From contig OZ244937.1 in assembly GCA_965222075.1 (NCBI GenBank), positions 3,083,670 to 3,147,669 on the forward strand: DNA of 64,000 bases, read 5' to 3'. Of this stretch, positions 24,172 through 53,900 are shown one piece after another (the stretch's first letter is position 1; the number at the start of each line of letters is the position of its first letter). The notes beneath the pieces were generated by a model. That model did not search any database and was not told where the DNA came from. It was given only the letters and a program-made list of their open reading frames with translations. The position numbers and the translations under genes were made by a program. The stretch is from Candidatus Latescibacterota bacterium. Lineage in GTDB: Bacteria; Latescibacterota; UBA2968; GCA-2709665.

Positions 24172-26637
24172 CAGATGTCCGAAACCGCTGAAAAGCCCAA
24201 AACCGTCCGCCTCAGCCTCCCCATCTCCGGCATGTCCTGCGCCGCATGCGCCTCCCGCATCGAAAAGGGCCTGCAGGAGGTCCCCGGCGTGGCCGAGGCA
24301 GTCGTCAACTTCGGCGTGGAGCAGGCCACAGTCGCCTACGATCCGAAGCGGGTCGGCGTCGAACAGCTCGCCGAAAAGATCGGCGTCCTCGGCTACGATG
24401 TCCGGGGGGATGAGGTCACCCTCTCGGTGAAAGGCATGTCCTGCGCCGCATGCGTCTCCCGTGTGGAATATGCCCTAAGAGCGATCCCCGGCGTCATCAA
24501 GGCGAATGTTAACTTTGCCACCCACCAGGCAACCGTCCGCTACCTCAACATCGACGTGGACGCCCTGAAGCAGTCCGTGGCCGACGCCGGCTATGAGGCA
24601 TCGATGGTTGAGGAAGAGCAGGTATCGGAAGATCGGGAACGGGCCGACCGCCGGGCCGAATACCGGGCCGTTCGCCTCCGCTTCGTCGTGGGCGGCGTCC
24701 TCTCTGCCCTCATCATGGGTGTCGGCATGGTCCATACCCTCCTGGGCGTTGACCTCCCCACGCGGGAGATCCACCTCCTCCTCTTCCTGCTTGCAACCCC
24801 CGTCCAGTTCTGGTGCGGATGGCGGTTCCTGAAAGGCTTCCAGACCGCGCTTTGGCATGCCACGGCCGACATGAACAGCCTCATCGCCGTGGGCACCCTC
24901 GCCGCCTACGGCTACAGCACAGCCCTCACCTTTGCGCCCCGCGCCGTTGCCGAAGTCGGCCAGGCCCTGCACGTCTACTTCGACACCTCGGCCATGATAA
25001 TCACCCTCATTCTCCTTGGCCGGATGCTGGAGGCCAGGGCTAAGGGGCGCACCTCCGACGCCATCCGCAAACTGATGGACCTCCGCCCCCAGACCGCCCG
25101 CCTCATCCGGGATGACCAGACCCTTGTGGTCCCCGTTGAAGAAGTCGCCGTGGGAGACCTCCTCCGCGTCCGCCCGGGAGAAAAAATTCCCGTGGACGGC
25201 GCCCTCTACCAGGGCCGTTCCACAGTGGACGAATCGATGGTCACCGGCGAGAGCATCCCCGTGAAAAAAGGCCCCAACAGCCAGGTCACCGGCGGCACCC
25301 TTAACAAAACCGGAACCTTCACCTTTCGGGCCACCCAGGTCGGGTCGGAAACCGTCCTGGCCCGCATCGTCCAGATGGTCCGGCAGGCCCAGGGGTCCCG
25401 TGCCCCCATCCAGCGCCTCGCCGACCGGGTTGCGGGCATCTTCGTGCCCATCGTCTTCGGCATCGCCCTCCTCACCTTCCTTCTCTGGTACACCCTCGGC
25501 CCGCAGCCCCCGCTTGCTGCGGGCCTCCTCAACGCCGTCGCCGTCCTCATCATCGCCTGCCCCTGCGCAATGGGCCTGGCCACCCCCACCGCCATCATGG
25601 TCGGCACCGGCCGGGGCGCCGAATTCGGCGTCCTCATTAAAGGGGGCGACGTCCTGGAAACCGCCTGCCGGCTCGACACGGTCGTCTTAGACAAAACCGG
25701 CACCCTCACCACCGGCGCGCCCGCCGTCACCGACCTCATCCCCGCCGACGGCTTCAGCGAAAAGGACCTGCTTGTGCTGGCCGCCTCGGCCGAACAGGCC
25801 TCGGAGCACCCCCTCGGTGAGGCCATCCTCAAAGCGGCGGGCGAACAAAACCTCTCCCTGCGGGAGGCGCAGGCATTCGAAGCCTTCCCCGGAGAGGGCA
25901 TCGCCGCAGAAATCGCAGGGGTCACCCTACTCCTGGGCAACCGGCGGCTGATGGAAAATCAGGAAGTTCTTCTGGACGGATGGGCAGGACAGGCAAAGCG
26001 GCTTGAAAGAGAAGGAAAAACCACCGTATTCATCGCAGCCGACGGCCGGCCGGCGGGGCTTATCGGCATCGCCGACACCCTCAAGCCGGGGGCCGCAGAC
26101 GCAGTGGCCGACCTCCACGGCCTGGGCCTGAAAGTCGCCCTGGTCACCGGCGACAACGCCCGAACCGCAGAGGCGGTCGCCCGGATCGTCGGCATCGACC
26201 GGGTGCTGTCCGAAGTCATGCCGGAAGGGAAAGCCGACCGGATCGCGGAGCTTCAGGCCGGGCGAAAAGGGGTCGGCATGGTAGGCGATGGCATCAACGA
26301 CGCCCCCGCCTTAGCCCGGGCCGACGTCGGCATCGCCATCGGCACCGGCGCAGACATCGCCAAAGAAAGCGCAGACATCACCCTCATCTCCGGAGATCTG
26401 AGCGGCATCGGCGCGGCGGTGCGGCTCTCTAAGAAGACCATGCGAGTCATTCGCCAGAACCTCTTCTGGGCATTTGCCTACAACACCCTCCTCATCCCCA
26501 TCGCCGCTGTGGGCCTTCTCAACCCCCTTGGCGGCCCCATGCTCGCAGCGGCGGCCATGGCCTTCAGCTCCGTCTCCGTCCTCTCCAACTCCCTCCGGCT
26601 GCGGCGGTTCGATCCAACTCAGCGCCGGTTCGCATAA
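24172..26637 (+). CDS. copA: Copper-translocating P1B-type ATPase with two N-terminal HMA domains
   Basis: Two GMSCAAC HMA motifs, CPC ([12 protein letters not shown]), DKTGTLT, and the GDGINDAP hinge. Start chosen at MSETAEK; the upstream basic extension of the ORF is rejected. Confidence 0.9.
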
Positions 26638-27740
26638 TTCAAAATCCCCTTCACAATCCGTTCGGCGCTCCGCTGCCGGTTCTTGTGAAACCGCAGCCTG
26701 TAGGCCTCGCCCCTGTCGTGCATATTGTGGACCTCAACCAAGATCTCGGCATACGCCCGGTTGTTCCGGAGCACCCCCAAGTTGCGCCCCATGATCTGTG
26801 CGGGGAGATCGGGATGGTGCAGGGCCTTCTGCATCACCTGCGCGAACTTTCGGGAACGTTTATCGACCTTCCCCCTCCGGTTCAAATAGATCGCCAGCGG
26901 TCCCTTGGGCCGCCCCGGGCTGTTGTCTGCATGCAGCGAAACAAAAAGGCTCTTCCCCTTCCGGGCGCCCTTGAAATGCCGGTTGGCAATCCTGACCCGT
27001 TGTAAGAGATTGTTCCCGCCGGGACGGACGGAGCCCGAACGCCTCTGGTTCCTCTTCGCGTCGTTGTAAACCTCGTTCTGCTCGTGCACGAAGGTCACGC
27101 TCGCCCGGAAGTTGTCGCGTATGAGGTGGTTGGGGCTGATCACCGTCAGCTCCACCTCCGCGCCCTTCAGCCGCAGAAGTTCGTATACCCGCAGCGCAAT
27201 ATCGTAGACATACTCGTCCTCAACCACGTAGACCGAACGCTCCACCCCGTCCTTATTCGATACAATCGCCCCCGGATCGATGCCCCCATGCCCGGGATCA
27301 ACCACCACCTTCCAGCCCTTCAGCGGCAGCCGCCTGCCCCGGTTTTGGGCCAGCCTGGCACGGATCTCTGCGTCGAACGCCTGCAATAGCGCACGGGCGT
27401 TCTGGTAATCCTTGATCGGTCGAAACCGGGAAGGCTCGATATACTTCCGGCTCTGCTGTGCAGCCACCCTCGGTTTATAAAAATAATAAGGACCGTTCTC
27501 GGCCTTTATCTCCTTGAGCCTGGGCCCCAAACGCAGCACCTGTCCCGGATAGACCCGGTCGCTCCGGAGCCGGTTGAGCCGCTTGATCTCCTTTACGCTC
27601 ACCTGGAACAGGCGGGCAATCGACCAGAGGGAATCCCCCTTCCGGACCTCGTACGTCAGAGAAAGCCCAAGCGGCTCCCCCAGGGTAAACAGGACCAGAA
27701 AAAGCCCGACACAGACCTGGAAAATGCGGTGTAAGGTCAT
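26619..27740 (-). CDS. N-acetylmuramoyl-L-alanine amidase (Amidase_3) with LysM domain
   Basis: LysM ([29 protein letters not shown]...GQVLRL) followed by [13 protein letters not shown] amidase_3 motif. Start at [18 protein letters not shown] (signal/TM). Confidence 0.85.
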
Positions 27741-28130
27741 AGATTTAAAAACTGAAGGAGGATAAATTTTGGGGGGATTTGGCCTTGTGGTTGACCACAG
27801 CCGCGGAACCCCGGGTACAAACGGTGCAGCACCCGAACGCATGATGCCTCTGAGTTCGCAGTCGTGGCCAATCGTCTTCAGGCGGCACCGAAGGGGCACG
27901 GTGCAAAGCCGGAAAAGACCCTTGAACATGCCAAAACATAGGGACTTTGGGGGAAAAAGGCAAGAGAAAGCGGCCAGACCGTATCCTGAACCGGTTGGTC
28001 CTTTTCACCGCTCAAGTTGGTGTTTTCCACCAACTCTCTCATTTAAACGAGCTTGAACGAGCCCAATTTTCTTCTACATAAGTCTTATAAGAACAATTTC
28101 TTATATAAATATCTCCTGTTCATCAAAAAC

Positions 28131-28148
28131 CCGGCACGCCCCTTGCAG
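28131..28148 (+). promoter_or_regulatory. sigma54 (-24/-12) promoter upstream of pspA: cCGGCACGccccTTGCAg
   Basis: GG (28133-34) and GC (28145-46) are spaced exactly 10 nt apart, matching TGGCACG-N4-TTGCA consensus in 11 of 12 conserved positions. Lies 58 nt upstream of pspA ATG. AT-rich inverted repeat TTATAAGAA-caat-TTCTTATA at ~28085-28105 is a candidate UAS/IHF region. Confidence 0.65.
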
Positions 28149-28205
28149 AGAAGACGGCTGGAAGCTGCCGTTTCACGTTTCACAAAAAAGAGAGGAGCCA
28201 CACCG

Positions 28206-28883
28206 ATGGCCAAAGGAATCTTTTCAAGAATGGCGGACATCATCAAAGCCAACATCAACGACCTCCTGAATCGGGCGGAAGACCCGGAAAAGATGATCCG
28301 CCAGATGATCCTCGAAATGGAGGAGGCCGTCAACAAGGCGACCGCGTCCGTCGGCACCGCCGTGGCCAACGAGAAGCGGCTGGAGCGCCAGTGCCTCGAG
28401 AAAAAGGACCAGATCAAGGCCTGGCAGAAAAAGGCCGAACTCGCCGTCCAGGACGGAGAAGACGACCTGGCCCGGCGGGCGCTGGAACGGAAAGCGGCCC
28501 TGGAAGAGGCCGCCAAAGACTTGAGCGCCGCCCTCGACGAAAGCCAGCGGACCTCCAAACAGCTCAAACAGCAGCTCATGCAGCTCAAGGCCAAACTGGA
28601 CGAAGCCCGCACCCGCCAGGGCGCCCTCATCGCCCGGCGCAAAGCCGCAGAAGCCCGCAAGCAGATCGCCAAAGGCCTCTCCGGCGTGGGTGACGATGCC
28701 TTCTCCAGCTTCGAGCGGTTCCGCCAGCGGGTTGAAACCGAAGAGGCCGAAGCCGAAGCCCACCAGGAAATCGCCGGTTCCGAGCCTTCGCTGGAAGACG
28801 CCTTCACCAAACTCGAACGGAAGAGCACGGTGGAAGAGGAACTTGAAGTCCTCAAGAAAAAACTGGGCCGGACCGATGCGTGA
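28206..28883 (+). CDS. pspA: Phage shock protein A (PspA/IM30 family)
   Basis: MAKGIFSRMADIIKANINDLLNRAEDPEKMIRQMILEMEEAV is the canonical PspA N-terminus. Coiled-coil throughout. AGAGGAG RBS. Confidence 0.9.
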   Translation: MAKGIFSRMADIIKANINDLLNRAEDPEKMIRQMILEMEEAVNKATASVGTAVANEKRLERQCLEKKDQIKAWQKKAELAVQDGEDDLARRALERKAALEEAAKDLSAALDESQRTSKQLKQQLMQLKAKLDEARTRQGALIARRKAAEARKQIAKGLSGVGDDAFSSFERFRQRVETEEAEAEAHQEIAGSEPSLEDAFTKLERKSTVEEELEVLKKKLGRTDA

Positions 28884-29093
28884 CGTCCAGAAAATCTTAG
28901 ACGAAATCGCCTGCTCAAACTCGCCCGGGAAAAGGGCGGCAGCCTCACCGTCCTCGAAGCCGCCACCGATGCCCGCATGACCGTAGAAAAGGCCGAGGAG
29001 ATCCTCCGAGAACTGGCCGCCCGGGGCCACGCCGAGGTCCGCGTCTCCGAGTCGGGCCTCATCGTCTACTACTTCCCGGTGCACGAACTCTGA
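28876..29093 (+). pseudogene. Small wHTH-like ORF translationally coupled to pspA, apparently disrupted by a 1-nt frameshift (or sequencing error) near 28908-28912
   Basis: ATG 28876 overlaps the pspA stop (ATGcgTGA) and opens MRDVQKILDEIA in frame +1. Clearly protein-like sequence LLKLAREKGGSLTVLEAATDARMTVEKAEEILRELAARGHAEVRVSESGLIVYYFPVHEL* continues in frame 0 to 29093. One extra C in the gcc run would join them into a ~72-aa helix-turn-helix/beta-hairpin protein. Confidence 0.35.
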
Positions 29094-29112
29094 AACCTCA
29101 GGGAGGGCTGTC

Positions 29113-29322
29113 ATGATCGAAGTCGGATTTGGAGTTGCGCTGATCATCCTCGCTGTTGCGATCCTCAAATACGTGGAGCGACGCTACAAAGGCGCCATCC
29201 CCAGCGATGCCGAAGAACGGCTCATGGCCCGAATGGCCGAACTCGAACGACGCCTCACAGACATCCAGGACGTCATGATCACCATCGACGAAAAAATGAG
29301 CAGGAGCAATCCGGAGGAATGA
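29113..29322 (+). CDS. PspB-like single-pass membrane coiled-coil protein (paralog 1)
   Basis: 69 aa. N-terminal TM helix (IEVGFGVALIILAVAILKYV) then coiled coil SDAEERLMARMAELERRLTDIQDVMITIDEKM. Same architecture and heptad pattern as E. coli PspB. GGGAGGG RBS. Confidence 0.5.
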   Translation: MIEVGFGVALIILAVAILKYVERRYKGAIPSDAEERLMARMAELERRLTDIQDVMITIDEKMSRSNPEE

Positions 29323-29327
29323 TCTTC

Positions 29328-29447
29328 AGTGACGCCGAAAAACGGCTCATTGGCCTGGATAGACGAACTCGAACGCATGCTCACAGACATCCAGGACGTC
29401 ATGATCACCATCGACAATAAAATGAGCAGGCCCAAAGTGGAAATTTA
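29328..29447 (+). pseudogene. Degenerate duplicate of the 3' half of the PspB-like gene (no TM region, 1-nt indel)
   Basis: ~85% nucleotide identity to 29203-29305, including an identical 36-nt run ctcacagacatccaggacgtcatgatcaccatcgac. Frameshifted relative to its parent. Encodes ...IDELERMLTDIQDVMITIDNKMSRPKVEI*. Confidence 0.45.
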
Positions 29448-29481
29448 AACCGTTCACCCAAACCCACAGGGAGGAAAATAA

Positions 29482-29739
29482 ATGATAGGCTGGATCCTGG
29501 AACTGATGATCGGCTTCTCTCTGATCATCGTCGTAAGCGGAACAGTAAGCTACGTTCACCTGAGGCTGAAACGCGCCTCGAAGGGAGTGAATCCGGACCG
29601 GGCCAAGCGGATGGAAGCCCGGCTGGACACCCTGGAACAGAGGTTGACCGATATTCAGGACATTATCATCGCCATCGACGAGAAGCTGAACCGGGCAGAC
29701 TACCGACCGCCATCTCCGGTCCAAACAGACAAAGGATAA
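29482..29739 (+). CDS. PspB-like single-pass membrane coiled-coil protein (paralog 2)
   Basis: 85 aa. TM helix (IGWILELMIGFSLIIVVSG) then AKRMEARLDTLEQRLTDIQDIIIAIDEKLNRADY. GGGAGG RBS. Confidence 0.5.
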   Translation: MIGWILELMIGFSLIIVVSGTVSYVHLRLKRASKGVNPDRAKRMEARLDTLEQRLTDIQDIIIAIDEKLNRADYRPPSPVQTDKG

Positions 29740-29743
29740 CGCC

Positions 29744-29923
29744 ATGCTCTCCAAAATCCTCGGCATCATCTTGATCGTCATCGGGGGTTCCCTGGCCCTC
29801 GGTGTCCTGTTTCAACTGATCGGCTCAATTGTCGGACTGCTCTGGGCCATGATCAAACTGGCCATACCGCTGGTCCTCCTCTACGTCGGCTACCGGCTGC
29901 TCACACGGGAACCGGATTATTAA
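29744..29923 (+). CDS. Small membrane protein, two TM helices (59 aa), below ORF-table cutoff
   Basis: ATG 29744 to TAA 29921-23: MLSKILGIILIVIGGSLALGVLFQLIGSIVGLLWAMIKLAIPLVLLYVGYRLLTREPDY. Tightly packed between PspB-like paralog 2 and the ECF sigma gene. Confidence 0.4.
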   Translation: MLSKILGIILIVIGGSLALGVLFQLIGSIVGLLWAMIKLAIPLVLLYVGYRLLTREPDY

Positions 29924-29935
29924 AGGGGTTGAAAA

Positions 29936-30517
29936 ATGCCACAAACAGAAGACCGCGTCCTGATCCGTCGGGTGCTGGCGGGAGATCACTCAGCTTTTGA
30001 CACCCTCTACAAGACCCACCATCCACAGGTCTACGCCATGATCGCCCGTCGCGTCTCCGACAGAGACCTCACAGAAGACCTGGTCCAGACCACCTTCCTG
30101 CGCGCCTTCCGTTCCCTTAACACCTACCGGGGCGACGCGGCCTTCTCCACCTGGCTGACTCAGATCGCCTTAAACGTCTTCAAATCTCACCTCCGGGCGC
30201 AGCGGGTGCGGCAGACCTGGGTACACGAAACCGAAGACCCCGAACGGGCGACCGGAATCGACCGGGAGCCGGCCCCCTGTGAAAATCCCGAACAGGTGAT
30301 GCAGCAGAAAGAACGCCGAAAACTCGTCATACAGGGCATCCGGTCTCTGCCTGCGCGTTACCGCAAAGCGGTCTGGCTGCGCTACATCAAGGACTGGTCC
30401 TACGAAGAAATCACGCAGGCGCTCCAGGTGCCGATGGGCACGGTCAAAACCCGGCTCTGCCGGGGGCGCCGGCAGTTGAAAGGGGAATTTCGCAAACTGG
30501 GCCTCCAGGCAGTATAG
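29936..30517 (+). CDS. RNA polymerase sigma-70 ECF-subfamily sigma factor
   Basis: Region 2 (DLVQTTFLRAFRSLNTYRGDAAFSTWLTQIALN) and region 4 (SYEEITQALQVPMGTVKTRLCRGRRQL) are diagnostic of ECF sigma factors. AAAGGGG RBS. Confidence 0.9.
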   Translation: MPQTEDRVLIRRVLAGDHSAFDTLYKTHHPQVYAMIARRVSDRDLTEDLVQTTFLRAFRSLNTYRGDAAFSTWLTQIALNVFKSHLRAQRVRQTWVHETEDPERATGIDREPAPCENPEQVMQQKERRKLVIQGIRSLPARYRKAVWLRYIKDWSYEEITQALQVPMGTVKTRLCRGRRQLKGEFRKLGLQAV

Positions 30518-30586
30518 CGGTAGATAGACCTTGACAATCGGGCGGTATTATACATATCATGTCGGCCCGGACGAAAGGAGGCAGCC

Positions 30587-31192
30587 ATGGAAGCCTGGTG
30601 GACAAACCTGACCACGTTGAACCAGATCCTCTACCTCGTGGCGATCTTTTTCAGCACGCTCTTCGCCTGGCAGTTTGCGGCGGCCCTGCTCGGCCTGGGA
30701 GGGGGCGCCGATGTGGGCGGGGGCGACGCGACCGCAGGGGATGCCGGACCGGAGATCGACGACATGGTCCAGGACGCAAGCGTGGCCGCCTTCAAACTCC
30801 TGTCGGTCCGTTCCATCATCGCATTTGGCATGCTCTTCGGCTGGGCCGGCGCGCTCTACCTCCAGTCGGGCACCGAGGTGGAAAGCGCGCTCCTCTACAG
30901 CCTGGTCTGGGGGGCCGCCGCGATGGTCGCCGTGGCCTATTTTTACCACGGCATTCAGCAGCTCACCGAGACCGGCAACCCCAAGCTGGAGACCTGCGTC
31001 GGCGCGTCGGGTGAGGTCTACATCGACATCCCCGAAAACGGGATCGGGCAGATCCGCGTGGTGGAAAGCGGCGCGGTCTCCTACGTATCCGCCCGGGGGA
31101 AAAACGGCGCCCCGATCCCGAACAAGACTCCGGTATGGGTACGGCGGGTAATCGATGGGACCACGCTCGAGGTCGAACAAATCGAACCCTGA
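30587..31192 (+). CDS. NfeD-like membrane protein (YuaF-type flotillin partner; N-terminal TM helices plus C-terminal OB-fold)
   Basis: 201 aa. TM helices at N-terminus and middle. C-terminal beta-rich segment GEVYIDIPENGIGQIRVVESGAVSYVSARGKNG...VWVRRVIDGTTLEVEQI is typical of the NfeD OB domain. Sits directly upstream of flotillin, as in yuaF-floT operons. Confidence 0.6.
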   Translation: MEAWWTNLTTLNQILYLVAIFFSTLFAWQFAAALLGLGGGADVGGGDATAGDAGPEIDDMVQDASVAAFKLLSVRSIIAFGMLFGWAGALYLQSGTEVESALLYSLVWGAAAMVAVAYFYHGIQQLTETGNPKLETCVGASGEVYIDIPENGIGQIRVVESGAVSYVSARGKNGAPIPNKTPVWVRRVIDGTTLEVEQIEP

Positions 31193-31228
31193 ACCCGAAA
31201 GCCAACCCACCCCTCAAAGGAGGCTCAT

Positions 31229-32773
31229 ATGCCAAATCCGATGATCCTGACGATGATTTTAGTCGCGGTCGTGTTTCTGCTGTTCCTGACCTTCATCTCC
31301 AGGTACAAGCGCTGCCCGTCCAACAATATCCTGGTGATCTACGGCAAAACAGGGAGTGGTGCGGCCAAGTGCGTGCACGGAGGCGCGGCCTTCGTCCTGC
31401 CCCTGTTGCAGGACTACAAATACCTGGACTTGGAGCCGTTCGTCGTGCCCATCGACTTAGACAATGCGCTCTCCCAGGAAAACATCCGGGTGTCCGTGCC
31501 CACAACGGTCACTGCCGCCGTCTCGAACCAGCAGGGCATCATGCAAAACGCCGCGGTCCGCCTCCTGGGCCTGTCGCACGACCAGATCCAGAGCCAGGCG
31601 CAGGACATCATCCTGGGCCAGATGCGGGCCGTGATTGCAACAATGGAGATCGAAGAGATCAACCAGGACCGGCAGGCCTTTATGGGCAAGGTCAACGAGG
31701 CGGTCTCCACCGAGATGGAAAAAATCGGTCTGGCCGTGATCAACGTGAACATCAAAGACATCGAGGACGAAAGCGGATATATCAAAGCCCTCGGCCAGAA
31801 AGCGGCGGCCGAAGCAATCAACCAGGCGGCCATCGACGTGGCCGAGCAGGAGAAAATGGGCAAGGTGGGGGTGGCCGAGCGGGAAAGGGACCAGCGCACG
31901 GATGTGGCCGCTGCGAACGCGGCCGCTGAAATCGGTGAATCCCAGGCCGCCCGGGACCGGCGTCAGAGGGTCGCCGCCCTCGAATCCGAAGCCGAAATCG
32001 GTGAATCCCAGGCCGCCCGGGACCGGCGCCAGAGTGTCTCCTCTCTGGATGCGGAAGCGGTCCAGGCCGAGGCCGAGGCCGAATCCAAGAAGGCCGGCTA
32101 CATGGCCCAGCAGAGGGTGGCCGAGGAGGTTGCCCGGCAAAAAGGGCAGGAGGCCGCAAAGGCCGCAGACGGCGCCATCCGGGTCGCGCAGGAACGGGCG
32201 GAGAAAGAGGCCGAGGAAGCCCGGGCGCTGCGCGAAGAAGCGCGTCTGAAAGCCGAAATCGTCGTACACGCCGAAGCGGAAAAACAGAAGCTGGTGGTAC
32301 AGTCCGAGGCCGAGAAAACGCAGAAAACCCTGGTGGCAGAAGGGGAGGCCGCCGCCATCCTGGCCCAGAAGCAAGCCGAAGCCCAGGGCACGCAGGCCAT
32401 CCTGGATGCGAAGGCCGAAGGTTACAGAGAGCTGGTGGCCGCATGCGGCGGAAAAGATCAGGCTGCCGCAGCCTTCCTCATCATCGAGCGGCTCACCGAG
32501 GTGGCGGGCATCCAGGCCGAGGCCATTCAGAACCTGCCTTTGGAGAAGGTGATGGTCTGGGACGGCGGCAATGAACAGGGCGGCCTGTCCAACCTGGGCC
32601 AGCGCCTGATGGGCACCATCCCCCCGATGCACGATCTGGCCCGGCTGGCCGGCCTGGAGCTCCCTGAATTCCTCGGCAGAATGACGGGAAGCAGCGAGCA
32701 GCAGACGCACACGTCCGACAGCGGCGGTGGCGGTACAGCGGAGGCGGGGGGCCAGACCGGGCCGTCCACTTAA
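31229..32773 (+). CDS. floT: Flotillin (SPFH/band-7 family, FloT/YuaG-like) with internal 66-bp tandem duplication
   Basis: 514 aa. N-terminal membrane hairpin, SPFH domain, and a long EA-rich coiled coil. Near-identical 22-aa repeat AEIGESQAARDRRQ(R/S)V at nt 31925-32056. Confidence 0.85.
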   Translation: MPNPMILTMILVAVVFLLFLTFISRYKRCPSNNILVIYGKTGSGAAKCVHGGAAFVLPLLQDYKYLDLEPFVVPIDLDNALSQENIRVSVPTTVTAAVSNQQGIMQNAAVRLLGLSHDQIQSQAQDIILGQMRAVIATMEIEEINQDRQAFMGKVNEAVSTEMEKIGLAVINVNIKDIEDESGYIKALGQKAAAEAINQAAIDVAEQEKMGKVGVAERERDQRTDVAAANAAAEIGESQAARDRRQRVAALESEAEIGESQAARDRRQSVSSLDAEAVQAEAEAESKKAGYMAQQRVAEEVARQKGQEAAKAADGAIRVAQERAEKEAEEARALREEARLKAEIVVHAEAEKQKLVVQSEAEKTQKTLVAEGEAAAILAQKQAEAQGTQAILDAKAEGYRELVAACGGKDQAAAAFLIIERLTEVAGIQAEAIQNLPLEKVMVWDGGNEQGGLSNLGQRLMGTIPPMHDLARLAGLELPEFLGRMTGSSEQQTHTSDSGGGGTAEAGGQTGPST

Positions 32774-32778
32774 AAGGG

Positions 32779-34146
32779 GTGATTCCTTTGGAAAAAACCC
32801 GGGTCCAGGACGCCGACCTCTGCTTCAAAACCGGCCTGCGTGCCCTCAAACAGGATAAAAGGGCGGAGGCCCGGCAGGCCTTCGAGGGCGCTGTCGAGCT
32901 GCACCCGGACCATCTCAACGCCCGGTTCCAACTCGCCCTCCTCTACGCCCGGGGCGGCGCGCCCGGTTCTGCGGGCCGGCAGAAAGCCGTAGCGGCCCTG
33001 CAGCACATCCTCGGCGTTGCCGGCCGGGGCGTGCCCTGTGCGAACCTGGACCGGGTCTGCTTCCTGTTGGGCAGCTTTCTGGACGACACACCCGAAAACC
33101 GGGGGAAGGCCATCGCAATCTACCGTCGGGGGCTCGACGCAGACCCCCTCTTTGCCCCGGGGCACAACAACCTGGGTGTCCTGCTGATGCAATCGGGCCA
33201 GACCATCCCGGCCCTGGGCGCCTTTAAAATCGCCCTCCACTTGGAGCCCGATTACACCCTCCCCTACCAGAACCTGGCCCGCCTCCTCTTCGACCACATG
33301 AGCCCTGCCCAGATGGAGCGGGAATACACCTCCATCATCGAAGAATTTGGCGTTCAGGCACCCCTGGTCCTCTCCAGGCTCTCCCTCGAACTCATCGATC
33401 TGGGCCGGGCGCAGGTCTATGAGAGCCTCTACACCCGGGGCCACCAGATCAAGAACCTCATGGGCGTGGTCGGCAGCCGGATGCGCCGGCTGATCCGAGA
33501 ATCGTCGCCCGATGAGAAAGGCCTCGACGACCTCAAAGACATTGCCCGCGAACAGGAACGGGTCTACGACCAGTGGGTCGCCTACCTCCGCTCTATGAAA
33601 CAGCACCCCATGAACCCCACGCTGGTGGAGATCCCCCAGCTGGTCCGGAAAGCAAGCGAAAAGGTCGTCACCCGGAAAGGAAGAAAGACCCTCCGCTTCG
33701 CATCAGAAGCCCATGTTCCCCAGGTCAAGGCAGACCCCGGCATGCTCCGCGAGGCTGTCACCAACCTCATCCTCAACGCCCTCGAAGCCGTCGGAGAGGA
33801 TGGAAAGGTCACCCTTCAGACCGGCTACGATCCCAAACGCGCCTCGGTCTACGTCGAAGTGGAGGACAACGGCCCGGGTATCTCCAAACCCCTCCAGGTC
33901 CGGATCTTCGACCCCGGATACTCCACCAAAGAAAAGGGGAACGGCTACGGCCTCAGCATCTGCGCCCGGATCGTCTCGGCCCACCGCGGTAACCTCCGGG
34001 TAATGAGCCGGCCCGGCGCCGGCGCCGTCTTTCGGATTGACCTGCCGGTCGACTTCGAACTCGCCTCCGAAGAGGAGAGCATCGGCCTCCAGGGCGCCCC
34101 GCTGCAAACCGCGCGTCACCCCCTCGCCGAGGAGTTCATCAAGTGA
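32779..34146 (+). CDS. Cytoplasmic sensor histidine kinase with N-terminal TPR repeats (no TM segments)
   Basis: TPR repeats in N-terminal half. H-box (RGHQIKNLMGVV). HATPase_c G-boxes (VEDNGPGI, GYGLSICARIV). Annotated GTG start at 32779; TTG at 32788 has better RBS spacing. 4-nt overlap with the downstream response regulator. Confidence 0.75.
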   Translation: MIPLEKTRVQDADLCFKTGLRALKQDKRAEARQAFEGAVELHPDHLNARFQLALLYARGGAPGSAGRQKAVAALQHILGVAGRGVPCANLDRVCFLLGSFLDDTPENRGKAIAIYRRGLDADPLFAPGHNNLGVLLMQSGQTIPALGAFKIALHLEPDYTLPYQNLARLLFDHMSPAQMEREYTSIIEEFGVQAPLVLSRLSLELIDLGRAQVYESLYTRGHQIKNLMGVVGSRMRRLIRESSPDEKGLDDLKDIAREQERVYDQWVAYLRSMKQHPMNPTLVEIPQLVRKASEKVVTRKGRKTLRFASEAHVPQVKADPGMLREAVTNLILNALEAVGEDGKVTLQTGYDPKRASVYVEVEDNGPGISKPLQVRIFDPGYSTKEKGNGYGLSICARIVSAHRGNLRVMSRPGAGAVFRIDLPVDFELASEEESIGLQGAPLQTARHPLAEEFIK

Positions 34147-35549
34147 AGGCGCACATCCTCATCGCCGACGACCAGCCCGAAATCCTGGACATGCTCACCC
34201 GCAGCCTCCAGGCCGACGGCCGGACCGTTCAGGCCTTTCCCTCCAGCGCCAACGCGCTTGGCTATCTGCAAAAACACGCCCCGGCAGTCGACATGGCCAT
34301 CCTCGACCTCGACTTTGGCCCCGGCGAACCCGACGGCCTGGAAACCCTCCGGCAGATGCGGCAAGAAGCGCCCGACCTGCCCGTAATCATCCTTACCGGC
34401 AAAGGCACCGTGGAAACCGCCGTAGCTGCCCTGCGCCTGGGCGCGGCCGACTTCATTGAAAAAGACTTCTACATCGAAGACAGGCTTGAACTCAGCCTGG
34501 AAAAACTCGACCGGATGCTCTCTGTCCTCCGGGAAAATGCCCGGCTGCGGGCCGAAGTGGACGACCTCGACCGGGAAAACCGGTTCTACCGGGCCGAATT
34601 CGGAAAGCGCTACCAGGTCATCAGCGTCAGTCCCCAGATGCAGCAGATCATGCAGCAGGCCGAGCGCATCGCCTCCATCCCCCGCCCCGTCCTCATCCTG
34701 GGCGAACGGGGCACCGGCAAAGAACTGGTGGCCGCCGCGGTCCACTACGGGGGCGTGCGCAAAGACCGCCCCTTTGTCAAAGTCAACTGCGCGGCCCTCT
34801 CCGCCACCCTCTTGGAAAGCGAACTCTTCGGGCACGAAAAAGGGGCCTTCACCGGTGCGGTCGAGGCCCGCCCGGGCCGGTTCGAGGCCGCCAACGGGGG
34901 CACCCTCTTCTTAGACGAAATCGCCAGCACCACCCCCGAGTTTCAGCAGAACATCCTGCGCGCCATCGAATACCAGGAAGTACAGCGGGTCGGCGCTGCC
35001 GCGCCGGTACCGGTGGACGTGCGCATCATCGCCGCTACGAATGCCGACCTCGAACGGGAAATGGCCGAAGGCCGCTTCCGGGAGGACCTCTACGACCGCC
35101 TCCGGTTCGAAATCATCCGCATCCCCCCCCTCCGGCAGCGCCGGGAAGACATCCAGCCCTTAGCAGAGTTTTTCGCCGAACAGATCCTCCAGGAAGTCCC
35201 CGGCCTTGTACGCCGTCCCTTTTCAAACGCCGCCACAAAACGGCTGCTCGCTTACGGCTGGCCGGGCAACGTGCGCGACCTCAAATTCGCCGTGGAGCGG
35301 GCCGCCTGCATGGTCGCCGGCCCCGCCATCGAACCCGACGACCTGCCTCCCGAAATCGCCTCGGGCGCATTCGAACCCTCCGGTGAGGGATTTGAAGCGC
35401 AGACGAGGGCCTTTGAACTGGGCTTGCTCCGCCAGGCCCTGCACGCCACCGCCTGGAACCAGCGGCAGGCCGCCGCCCAATTGAAACTCAGCTACGACCA
35501 GTTCCGCCACCGCTACCGGAAATACGACCTGGACCGGGAAAAGCCGTAG
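34143..35549 (+). CDS. sigma54-dependent response regulator (NtrC family: REC + AAA+ bEBP + HTH)
   Basis: REC domain (phospho-acceptor D in AILDLDFG). Walker [15 protein letters not shown] motif ([15 protein letters not shown]), and C-terminal Fis-type HTH. Confidence 0.9.
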
Positions 35550-35578: not shown

Positions 35579-35610
35579 GGCCCGAGCATTCGGGCCATTT
35601 TATTGTTTTT
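35579..35610 (+). terminator. Rho-independent terminator after the sigma54 response-regulator gene
   Basis: GGCCCGA-gcat-TCGGGCC hairpin followed by ATTTTATTGTTTTT. Confidence 0.75.
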
Positions 35611-50962: not shown

Positions 50963-53900
50963 GTGTCAACCACACCCAGCGCACCAGACGCACTCATTGT
51001 TTCCGGCGACGACCGTGTTCAGAAAATTCTGGCGCAGGAAGATGCCGTTGTTGTGCCCGCCTATGCGTTTTTCCTGGATGGTTTCGTGAAAGATACGTTT
51101 ACCGAATATGCCAATCCCTCGATCTACCGTCCGCCATCGGTTTGCAGCGCCCGCCTGGTGAGTACCCTGCGGGATATGTACCAGTTTAAAGAGACCGGCA
51201 CATACTATTTCGGCTTTACGATGTATGCCGACGCCGGATATGACGAGCCGGTTGAGGTCTGGGTCGGCCACGAACAGGTTGCGCTGGCCCGGCATCCCGA
51301 CCCGGATAATCGGGTGCATCTTTTTGTGGCGCCCAAACCAATTGGTTTTCAGGGCGGTGAGCTCAAACGCCTGATCACCGGGAAAACAGACGGTCCGTGT
51401 CGGATTGAAAATGTGGTTCTTCTCAAGAAACGACCCCGGCCGACGCCGCCCGAATTGACCGTTCTTTCCCCCCATGTGGACGTCCGCCACGATAACGGCA
51501 AAGCCTGTGCCTATATTACGTGGATGACCAGCCGGCCCGCGTCGGGACGGTTGCGCTGGGGCAGCGGCAAGAGGCTGTCCAGGACCGTTGAGATGGCCGG
51601 TCCGCTGGCCAACCACGAAGTGGTTCTGGAAGGTCTGGACCTGAACAAGTCGTACCGGTTTGAGCTGGATCTGACCGGGCGTGTGGAGGGGCTCAAAGCT
51701 GCATATGCCGGAGTGTTCAAGACGGATCTTACAGCGCCTTCAAGCCGGGTGAAAAAGGGGCGCGTTCCGATTCGGCTGCGTCGACCCGGCAATGGGCTGT
51801 GGCCGGTTTCTGTGGGTGTGCCCTTTCCAAAAGGTGCGCTGGGCAGCGAGGATGAGATTCGGCTGGTGGATAAGCGTGGGGCAGAGGTGGGACTTCAGGC
51901 GCGCAGTCTTGCGCGGTGGGAGGATGGCTCGGTGCGCTGGGCGCTGCTGGATTTTCAGGCGGACGGAAAGCATGAGTATACCGCTGAATACGGCAGTGAG
52001 GTTTCCCGTTCTGTGCCTGGTGATAGGCTGGAGGTGTCGGAGTCGGAGACGTCGGTTGTGGTGACGACCGGGCCGCTGCGCGTGGAATTTCCGAAGGGCC
52101 GGGTGGTATTTCCGGGTGTGGTGTGGGTGAAACGGACAGACGGGTCGTATCGCAAGCTATCGGGACCCTCTGCCGGGGTGCGTCTGACCGGGGCCGATGG
52201 ATCGGTGTATGGATCGGGCAAGCCGGAGGCGGTGGTGGTGGAAGAGGCCGGTTCTGAGCGGGTGTGCGTGCGTGTGGAGGCGGTCCACCGGCTGCGCAGC
52301 CGGTCGTTGTTCCACTCGATTTTGCGCGTGCATCTATTCCGGGGCAGCGGGGCGATCCGGGTGCTGCACACGTTTGAGAATGACCGTGTGGAGGAGATGT
52401 TTACCTGCATCCGGGAATTGAGCCTGCGGTCGGACTTCAAGGTGGGAGGCGCTTTGCAGGGCCGGGTGGGCCGGCGCCGGGTGGAGGGACTCAAGGCTGG
52501 GGGGGTGGTACTGCACCAGGGACTGGACAACCGGTATGTTGTGAGACGGGGAGGGGCGGAGATCGCGAGAGGGCGCCGTGCGGAGGGCAGTGTGGCGTTG
52601 CGTGGGGATAGGGGCGGTGTGAGCCTGGTGGTGCGGGATTTCTGGCAGAATTATCCAAAGGGTGTGGCGGTGGATGAGAAGGGGATAACGGTGGGGATCT
52701 GTCCGGCGCTGGATGAGGCGGATTATCCGCGTGGAGGGGAACTGGAGGATCGGTTGTATTATTATTTGCTGGATGGGGTGTATAAGTTCAAGGCGGGGGT
52801 TTCCCGTACGCACGAGATGTGGTTTCACATTCGGTCAAAAGGCGATGCGCCAGAGGGTTTTGCGGCGTCGGTGCAGCGTCCGCCGCTGTATGGTATGTCG
52901 CTTGCAGCGTTCAATAAAAGCCGGGCGCTTACCCGGCTGCCCGAAAAAGAAAAATCTCCGTTTCCGCCGTATGAAACGTGGGTTGAGACCGTACGCGGCG
53001 TTTATGCCGAAGATCGAGAGAAATCCCGCGCTTATGGGATGCTCAATTACGGGGATTGGTTCGGAGAGCGCGTTTATAACTGGGGGAATATGGAGTATGA
53101 TACGCCCTGGTGTTTTTTGCAGGAGTATCTCAGGGGGGGGCATTCGGATTTTTATACCTGGGCCGAGGAGGCTGCGCGACATCTTGTGGATGTGGATACC
53201 GTCCACCATACCGACGAGCCCGACAATTTGGGGTCGCAGTATATTCACTCCGTCGGCCACGTGGGCAATTATTATCCCGATGGGTACCGGGAGCGCGCCA
53301 TTTTCGCCGGCCGCTGGAGTGTTTCCCATACCTGGGTGGAAGGTCTTTTTCTTTACCATCTTCTCACGGGCGATGCCAGGGCTCTGGAAAGCGCAATGCA
53401 GACGAGCAATTTGCTGGTTGGGAATATGCTCAACGACTATGATTTCACGAACTGTCGCAATTGCGGGTGGCACCTGATTCATCTGGCCGCCGCGTACAAA
53501 GCCACCGGCCGACGCGTGTATCTGAATGCCGCCCGTACGATCGTGGATCGCGTGCTGGAGCGGCAAAAGCCCTCCGGCGGATGGGAACGGCTTATGGTTC
53601 CCGGACACTGTTTCTGTTATCCGCTCCGGCATATGGGCAATGCCGGGTTTATGGTTGGCGTGTTGATGGCGGGGTTGCGTCGGTTCTACGAAGCGACGGG
53701 TGAAAAACGCGTTCGAGATGCGATTGTCCATGCCGCTACGTTTTGCATCGATGATATGTGGGTGCCCGAAAACCGGGCGTTCCGGTACACGTCGTGTCCC
53801 AAATCTTCGGTGGGGCGGTCCGCCGATATGGCCATTCTCAAAGGAATTGCTTTTGCCTACGATGTTTCCGGGAATGAACGGCTGAGGGAGGTTCTTTTCG

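Follow-up and report, generated by a model that had tools for sequence, protein, structure and literature searches.

A predicted enhancer-dependent sigma-54 promoter upstream of pspA in Latescibacterota, with PspF-type tandem sites and a response regulator as candidate activator

The gene pspA and the DNA in front of it are described here for a stretch of 64,000 nt from a Candidatus Latescibacterota bacterium (contig OZ244937.1, positions 3,083,670 to 3,147,669), referred to below as the window. The gene encodes a protein of 225 aa, lies on the plus strand (28206-28883) and matches the Pfam family PspA_IM30 with an E-value of 2e-46; against the NCBIfam model TIGR02977 the protein reaches 7e-55 and 186 bits, which is below the equivalog cut-off of 243. 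Upstream of pspA there is an intergenic region of 465 nt (27741-28205), bordered on its far side by a LysM/amidase_3 gene that is encoded divergently on the minus strand (26619-27740). This region contains a -24/-12 element of the sigma-54 type, an AT-rich tract and two dyads, and further downstream on the plus strand genes for a histidine kinase and a response regulator are found. Judged from sequence comparison, these parts are likely, with fairly high confidence, to form an enhancer-dependent sigma-54 promoter of pspA with the classical sigma-54/PspF architecture and a two-component input.

The promoter element CGGCACGccccTTGCA (that is, CGGCACGCCCCTTGCA) occupies positions 28132-28147 of the plus strand and consists of a -24 part, CGGCAC (GG at 28133-28134), and a -12 part, TTGCA (GC at 28145-28146). 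It was compared with the sigma-54 consensus, in which the GG and GC doublets lie exactly 10 nt apart inside TGGCAC-N5-TTGCW. The initial annotation had described a near-consensus motif with GG-N10-GC spacing, a mismatch at the first T only and a position 58 nt before the pspA ATG, and reading the sequence confirmed this description. In CGGCACGCCCCTTGCA, 10 nt separate the two doublets and the first T of the consensus is the sole mismatch, while the distance from the end of the motif to the ATG at 28206 is exactly 58 nt, all of it in non-coding intergenic DNA and with the motif in the correct orientation. The exact core GGCACG-N4-TTGC occurs a single time in the window, where 0.17 occurrences are expected, and the element has the top score in the window for a position weight matrix (PWM), with 20.6 bits compared to 13.3 bits for the runner-up. 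Relaxed sigma-54 patterns showed no enrichment within the window, so the window alone cannot establish a promoter and comparative data were used.

For this comparison, 76 pspA loci from different species were fetched (77 including the window), with PspA proteins that are 54-95% identical, and a -24/-12 element was searched with the pattern NGG[CT]A[CT]-N5-[TC]TG[CT] within 250 nt upstream of pspA. Such an element is present in 75 of the 77 loci, while in the remainder of these loci the pattern has a background rate of 0.027 per 250 nt. The two exceptions are a locus with just 46 nt of upstream sequence and locus L049. The end of the element is separated from the pspA ATG by 48-123 nt, and the DNA that flanks the element is unalignable between clades. 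In addition, the positions left free by the search pattern obey the sigma-54 consensus, with C/T at -27/-26, A at -11 and A/T at -10 to -8, and the C that replaces the first T in the window is common to seven other loci. Conservation thus gives strong support to the initial proposal of a sigma-54 promoter for pspA, and the motif can be regarded with high confidence as such a promoter; it is judged real because the element is kept in 75 of the 77 loci, which is the decisive evidence, and not because of the window statistics.

A different explanation would be that the motif is a chance match and that pspA is transcribed from a sigma-70 or extracytoplasmic function (ECF) sigma promoter elsewhere in the 465-nt region. 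At least one exact core match was present in 16 of 100 shuffles of the window, so that the motif is only mildly unexpected in the window alone, and an ECF sigma factor gene is part of the cluster. However, nearly all orthologous loci retain the element, similarly spaced from the ATG despite diverging surroundings, which is difficult to reconcile with chance, and no sigma-70-like site was found on the plus strand between 27741 and 28205. Moreover, an additional weak sigma-70 promoter would not make the sigma-54 promoter spurious. A chance match is therefore considered very improbable.

With the standard numbering, in which GG is -25/-24, transcription is predicted to start on the plus strand at 28156-28160, around 28158, resulting in a predicted 5' untranslated region (UTR) of approximately 48 nt. 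A ribosome-binding site, GAGAGGAG, is located at 28190-28197 on the plus strand, 8 nt before the ATG, and GAAAGGAG or GAGAGGAG is found in the same position in nearly all loci. The predicted fold of 28156-28215 is no better than that of shuffled sequences (z = -0.01). The predicted UTR also contains a tandem heptamer, CGTTTCA (28169-28182), of which the copy number is variable within the species. Loci L001-L004 are independent assemblies of the species of the window, and L005 represents the closest other species (PspA 93% identical to that of the window). Two copies are present in the window, L003 and L005, three are present in L001, and L002 probably has three as well, judged from its upstream spacing, which is 8 nt longer.

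Two further sigma-54-like matches were considered and rejected. The second PWM match in the window (51493-51515, minus strand) is located antisense inside an ORF of 1020 aa and was regarded as a chance match. In 15 loci, all within L024-L045, a sigma-54-like sequence, GGGCACAGACATTGCC, lies approximately 2.05-2.12 kb upstream of pspA, where it encodes the conserved G-T-D-I-A of a Cu-ATPase and has no dyads upstream of it. Genome-wide scans for sigma-54 sites in Latescibacterota should expect coding coincidences of this kind.

Upstream of the promoter, two dyads are arranged in tandem. The distal dyad, TGGTC-ctttt-CACCG (TGGTCcttttCACCG, 27996-28010), agrees with the motif TGGYG-N5-CRCCA in 8 of 10 positions and has the same sequence in L005, while the proximal dyad, TGGTG-ttttc-CACCA (TGGTGttttcCACCA, 28018-28032), matches it at all 10 positions and is part of an extended palindrome, AGTTGGTG..CACCAACT, at 28015-28035. 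Their centres are 22 bp apart and lie 130 nt (distal) and 108 nt (proximal) upstream of GG, which corresponds to approximately 155 and 133 nt upstream of the predicted start. Enhancer statistics were calculated over 73 loci, those for which 200 nt or more of upstream sequence were available, with the upstream regions anchored on the promoter GG. All 73 have at least one TGGYG-N5-CRCCA site, and sites with at least 9 of 10 matches are 67-fold enriched in the zone from -150 to -75 (0.0175 compared to 0.00026 per position). Two dyads were found in 52 loci, with a spacing of 21-22 bp in 40 of these and of 31-32 bp in eight, which belong to one subclade. The two dyads and the DNA that separates them are the same in the window and in L005, while the flanks have diverged; the 5-nt spacer of the proximal dyad is TTTTC in the window and AAAAA in L005, while its arms are the same. 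The retention of the arms while spacer and flanks diverge is the signature expected of a dimer-binding site. The promoter and a dyad are also present at the paralogous pspA loci L076 and L077, which share their genomes with L005 and L006. The tandem TGGYG-N5-CRCCA dyads at 27996-28032 represent the conserved putative enhancer at this locus and the predicted sites of the activator.

The centres of the proximal dyads cluster at -84, -96 or -110 from GG. Helical phasing derived from this clustering is suggestive and was not relied on, as the class at -106 to -108 consists in part of missed proximal sites.

Similar sites are found in Escherichia coli. Upstream of pspA in this species, TGATGAAATTCGCCA and TAGTGTAATTCGCTA are located 20 bp apart with centres 94 and 74 nt upstream of GG, in the region where PspF footprints, and GTTAACTTTTCACCA and TAGTCAAATTCACCA are found upstream of pspG. 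A matrix built from Latescibacterota sites only (consensus GTTGGCGAAATTCGCCAAC) ranks the two E. coli pspA sites 3rd and 5th in 4 kb, which is supportive but not conclusive.

The palindrome at 28015-28035 could also be read as an intrinsic terminator or RNA hairpin instead of a protein-binding site, as a terminator scan flags it with an 8-bp stem and a 5-nt loop followed by CTCTCATTTA. However, no plus-strand gene ends upstream of it, since the neighbouring gene is divergent and on the minus strand, and the T tail is poor. The palindrome is also one member of a tandem pair with a fixed spacing of 21-22 bp, of which the distal partner is an imperfect palindrome, and the same motif is found in the PspF enhancers of E. 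coli. A terminator at this position is consequently extremely improbable.

Between the conserved dyads and the promoter lies an AT-rich tract (28073-28125), which includes GAACAATTTCTTA and the AT-rich inverted repeat reported in the initial annotation. This inverted repeat does exist: TTATAAGAA-caat-TTCTTATA is located at 28085-28105 and has perfect arms of 8 bp. The direct repeat AACGAGC-ttg-AACGAGC also exists, at 28046-28062 on the plus strand and not at 28040-28056 where it had been placed; it is present in contigs of the same species and absent from L005, and there is no evidence for a function. Over the 73 loci, the mean AT content from -60 to -20 relative to GG is 72-76%, compared to 42% for the whole loci. 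A motif, aAAACAAnnnTTaAT (AAACAA-N4-TT), recurs on the plus strand of this zone and resembles the E. coli consensus for integration host factor (IHF), WATCAANNNNTTR, with one change; AAACAA is present in 25 loci, where 4.5 are expected. Sites with at least 8 of 9 matches to the E. coli IHF consensus were found in 22 loci compared to 12.5 in shuffles, which is a weak enrichment. By analogy with E. coli pspA, the AT-rich tract is probably a DNA-bending or IHF-type site, and for the AT-rich dyad itself an IHF-type site, which had been one of the two original suggestions, is plausible.

The other original suggestion, that the AT-rich dyad, the AACGAGC repeat or both would be the enhancer bound by the regulator, did not hold. 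An inverted repeat as long as this dyad occurs in just 1.5% of shuffles of the zone, it is indeed situated upstream of the promoter, and AT-rich palindromes centred on AACA are found in the same place in L013, L020 and L058. On the other hand, L005 keeps neither element, although its TGGTG..CACCA dyads are the same as in the window; the inverted repeat is not preserved as a dyad even there, and the AACGAGC repeat is lacking in this species. Across the loci, eight inverted repeats of at least 7 bp were found in the zone compared to approximately four expected, showing that the dyad is not generally conserved. Its centre is also just 37 nt or so upstream of GG, which is closer than usual for enhancer-binding proteins, and the far better conserved tandem site, which is PspF-like, is located further upstream. 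An enhancer role for either of these two elements is thus very unlikely, and the tandem dyads are retained as the predicted binding sites.

The candidate activator is a response regulator encoded on the plus strand at 34143-35549, which starts 5.9 kb downstream of the pspA ATG and overlaps the preceding kinase gene by 4 nt. It consists of a receiver domain (Pfam Response_reg, residues 5-112, 5e-22), a PspF-like AAA+ core (Sigma54_activat, 1e-64) and a PspF-like helix-turn-helix (HTH) domain (HTH_8). In the translation, the receiver domain reads DD at residues 9-10, the Asp in ILDLD, the Thr in ILTGKG and the Lys in FIEKD, and a GAFTGA motif is encoded at 34842; the window encodes no other GAFTGA protein and no other enhancer-binding protein. 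When the receiver domain is removed, the regulator scores highest in NCBIfam against PspF (TIGR02974, 346 bits), followed by NifA (326), NtrC (278), AtoC (278) and ZraR (265). The identity to E. coli PspF is 44% over PspF residues 17-325 of 325, that is, up to the last residue of the HTH. The HTH aligns with YNQKRAAELLGLTYHQFRALLKKHQI of E. coli PspF (a stretch that includes LGLTYHQFRALLKKHQI), indicating homologous C-terminal HTH domains. PspF residue W56 aligns with K207 of the regulator, and the regulator of L075 has A at this position.

The kinase gene (32779-34146, plus strand) encodes a histidine kinase with a HATPase_c domain (Pfam, 8e-23), N-terminal TPR families and the H-box GHQIKNL. 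No transmembrane (TM) segment is apparent on reading of the sequence, so the kinase appears to be soluble, and the best-scoring matches of its catalytic domain are AtoS and ZraS. In every locus that has the regulator, the kinase adjoins it. The synteny of pspA, kinase and regulator is observed in approximately 60 species, which represent almost every locus with enough downstream sequence. A compact version occurs in the most distant clade (PspA 55-64% identical), in which the kinase gene is found at +1.4-2.6 kb and the regulator gene at +2.6-3.7 kb.

The regulators can also be compared with their sites, using loci with either YDQ (n = 27) or YDR (n = 18) in the recognition helix of the regulator HTH. 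At position 4 of the half-site, the YDQ group has counts of 63 T, 35 C and 10 G, while the YDR group has 70 C and two T. This covariation between HTH and half-site provides a modest tie between the regulator and the dyads.

Another instance of the arrangement is present in L075, where a second pspA (Pfam, 1.7e-25) directly follows the regulator gene and represents an independent second occurrence of the module. This gene has its own two GGTGGCGATCAGCGCCAC sites, a AAAAACAAcagaTTG element (AAAAACAA-N4-TTG) and TCTGGCACAGTCCTTGCCA (TGGCACAGTCCTTGC). The sigma-54 promoter and the two dyads of this second pspA are located inside a 60-nt tandem duplication (within 12650-13640 of L075), and the gene is followed by one for a TM2-domain protein, of which the C-terminus resembles that of the 69- and 85-aa proteins of the window described below.

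Based on the synteny, the PspF-like core and HTH, the PspF-type sites and the covariation of HTH and site, the clustered regulator is probably the activator of the pspA promoter, and the link to the downstream sigma-54 response regulator that was drawn in the initial annotation is supported by the same evidence. Several points weigh against this reading and against the proposed architecture as a whole. The PspF score of the regulator (344-346 bits) is under the equivalog cut-off of TIGR02974, 443.55, and the E. coli sites are not the top-scoring ones under the Latescibacterota matrix. The distal dyad of the window has just 8 of 10 matches, and the chance rate of such sites is 0.78 per 300 nt. 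In essence, the covariation reflects one division into two clades, which may differ in GC content as well. In L053 and L076, promoter and dyads are present and no regulator is found within 8 kb, and the same holds for L077, on a contig of 4.4 kb. Finally, an RpoN-box regular expression, applied to all six frames of both the window and the related loci (1.18 Mb), found no rpoN, a result that is uninformative; the presence of rpoN was inferred from the conserved GAFTGA activator.

The loci that lack a regulator gene in the sequence covered (L053, L076 and L077), together with the resemblance of the dyads to E. coli PspF sites, would fit with a separate single-domain PspF that is encoded elsewhere and activates pspA, with the clustered kinase and regulator controlling other genes. 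However, the clustered regulator itself has a PspF-like HTH and core, it is linked to pspA in approximately 60 species, and the window encodes no enhancer-binding protein besides it. The variant of the regulator HTH goes together with that of the half-site, and in L075 the second pspA with the same module is located directly after the regulator gene. A separate PspF is for these reasons considered unlikely, and the clustered regulator remains the favoured activator.

In L053, the promoter and one dyad are kept, and neither kinase nor regulator is found within 8 kb. The promoter of L049 is degenerate (TGGAAT-N5-TTGC), and no kinase or regulator was found in its 3.9 kb of downstream sequence. 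L049 and L053 may represent lineages in which the regulator has been rewired or relocated.

The proposed mechanism builds on the observed conservation of the sequence elements, the way in which these are arranged, the linkage of the genes and the homology seen for the regulator. Sigma-54 RNA polymerase would bind CGGCAC-N5-TTGCA (28132-28147) as a closed complex, and the regulator would bind both dyads, at 27996-28010 and 28018-28032, through its PspF-type HTH. The adjacent soluble TPR kinase is predicted to phosphorylate the receiver domain, after which the AAA+ domain would assemble. The AT-rich tract at 28073-28125 would bend, either intrinsically or with an IHF/HU-type protein, by which the GAFTGA loops would be brought to sigma-54. 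ATP hydrolysis would then open the promoter, and transcription would start near 28158. Transcription may continue into the genes for small membrane proteins, and the kinase and regulator genes probably also use their own sigma-70 promoter. The model thus predicts the binding events, the control by phosphorylation, the bend, the position of the start and the organization of the operon.

Directly downstream of pspA, the remnant of the second gene of the cluster is found (28876-29094, plus strand), in which tblastn recovered just residues 1-12 and 147-205, each stretch in a frame of its own. In relatives, this gene encodes a membrane protein of approximately 222 aa with a C-terminus that resembles a winged HTH (compare L037, 8671-9339); the protein has no match to a Pfam family. 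The gene is detectable in 72 related loci, in approximately 45 of which it is full-length and overlaps the pspA stop, and most of the others show a partial match. In the window, an internal deletion of approximately 428 nt is present, and the surviving C-terminal part is in the frame of pspA right after its TGA. This state agrees in the four independent assemblies L001-L004.

The remnant is followed by three genes for small membrane proteins of 69, 85 and 59 aa (29113-29923, plus strand), identified as ORFs with one TM segment and a coiled coil, which is a PspB-like layout. Homologs of these genes follow pspA in most loci. None of the three proteins could be assigned to a family with Pfam or NCBIfam. 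An identity as PspB or PspC was rejected, as neither Pfam nor NCBIfam gave support even at E-values up to 5. The 69- and 85-aa proteins (29113-29322 and 29482-29739) are paralogous and share the layout of one N-terminal TM helix and a conserved motif at the C-terminus, ERRLTDIQD.(M/I)I.IDEK.

Further downstream on the plus strand, an ECF sigma factor gene (29936-30517; Pfam Sigma70_r2 and r4_2) is followed by genes for a 201-aa membrane protein with a weak NfeD match (E = 0.06) and a flotillin (Pfam Band_7, 3e-27), which together span 30587-32773, and then by the genes for kinase and regulator. Between the ECF sigma factor gene and the four genes that follow it, a gap of 69 nt contains a putative sigma-70-like promoter, TTGACA-18-TATCAT (30531-30560, plus strand), that matches the consensus at 11 of 12 positions. 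This promoter suggests that kinase and regulator are expressed at a basal level independently of sigma-54. Past the stop of the regulator gene there is a terminator-like hairpin (35579-35596, plus strand), with a 7-bp stem of which six pairs are GC and then ATTTTATTGT, and no plus-strand terminator was found after pspA. Read-through from the pspA promoter into the downstream genes under stress is possible.

On the other side of the enhancer, the LysM-amidase gene has a divergent sigma-70-like promoter by sequence pattern, with the -35 TTGCCT at 27963-27958 and the -10 TATGTT at 27940-27935 on the minus strand. The pattern CTTG[TC]C-N18-TAnnnT of this promoter is kept in 41 of the 73 loci, and in the window its -35 is located approximately 33 nt from the distal dyad. 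This layout recalls the divergent pspF/pspA region of E. coli, and by this analogy the regulator might affect the expression of the amidase gene as well.

The locus shares multiple features with the pspA-PspF system of E. coli and Yersinia. In both cases the gene is pspA and has a -24/-12 promoter (TGGCACGCAAATTGT in E. coli and CGGCACGCCCCTTGC here), preceded by two tandem sites of like sequence that are approximately 20-22 bp apart and approximately 100-150 nt upstream of the start. Enhancer and promoter are separated by an AT-rich stretch, which is where IHF acts in E. coli, a divergent sigma-70-type promoter adjoins the enhancer, and the activators have the PspF-like AAA+ core and HTH in common, with the 44% identity given above. 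The pspA promoter of E. coli is known to be sigma-54-dependent and to have two upstream activating sequences and an IHF site, with IHF assisting PspF (PMC3709507). However, E. coli PspF lacks a regulatory domain and is kept inactive by PspA, whereas the activator described here has a receiver domain and a cognate kinase. PspF residue W56 is required for the binding of PspA (PMC3709507), and where E. coli PspF has this residue, the Latescibacterota regulator has K207. The gene order is different as well, as the activator gene is at the far end of the cluster instead of divergent from pspA and the divergent gene encodes a LysM amidase. Also, no member of the PspB, PspC or PspD families was detected here with Pfam and NCBIfam.

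Compared to the NtrC/ZraR/AtoC type of regulators, such as those of the envelope stress system ZraSR, the order of receiver, AAA+ and Fis-type HTH domains, the presence of a cognate kinase and the tandem dyads approximately 100-150 nt upstream are the same. Differences are that the core scores higher against PspF, that the HTH carries the PspF signature L(S/T)Y.QFR, that the kinase appears to be soluble with TPR domains instead of membrane-bound, and that the target is pspA. The LiaRS-liaIH system of Firmicutes, in which LiaH is a PspA homolog, also has a gene of the PspA family that is activated by a two-component system from the same cluster. However, LiaR is a receiver-HTH protein that acts at a sigma-70 promoter (PMC9239133), whereas an AAA+ enhancer-binding protein and a sigma-54 promoter are found here. 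In Desulfovibrio vulgaris, sigma-54/PspF control of psp genes outside the Enterobacteria has been predicted as well, with DVU2989 acting on DVU2988-2986 (PMC4641369); DVU2989 is a single-component protein without an N-terminal domain, while the activator here is a response regulator.

PspF as a regulator of the Psp system has been described experimentally in Enterobacteriaceae only, according to a survey from 2022 (PMC9239133). PspF variants with ACT or PAS domains are known from a study in which a receiver fusion and the phyla discussed here are unmentioned (PMC11237479). A literature search returned no description of a receiver-PspF fusion controlling pspA and no work linking Latescibacteria to sigma-54; one paper in which Latescibacteria and rpoN are both named deals with an unrelated topic.

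Sigma-54/PspF control of pspA is a textbook model of enhancer-dependent transcription, and the same architecture, in which PspF-type sites in tandem are followed by a probable AT-rich bend and the -24/-12 promoter, is kept across an uncultured phylum, with the promoter conserved in approximately 75 species. The input differs, with a receiver domain and a TPR kinase in place of anti-activation by PspA. This arrangement is a recombination of known parts and does not imply a new mechanism of transcription. For the uncultured phylum, it yields a binding motif, TGGYG-N5-CRCCA, and a predicted regulon. As a tentative suggestion, the Psp response in Latescibacterota and allied candidate phyla may be switched by a phosphorelay and not by PspA sequestering PspF, with the TPR kinase reading PspA or the adjacent membrane proteins. 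Because the HTH and the type of DNA site have apparently been kept from these phyla to E. coli, the receiver-PspF arrangement could even be the older form, from which enterobacterial PspF would have lost the receiver domain and gained the contact between W56 and PspA. In either case, the pspA loci of these bacteria offer a natural experiment on a change of control mechanism in an AAA+ activator whose DNA target is retained.

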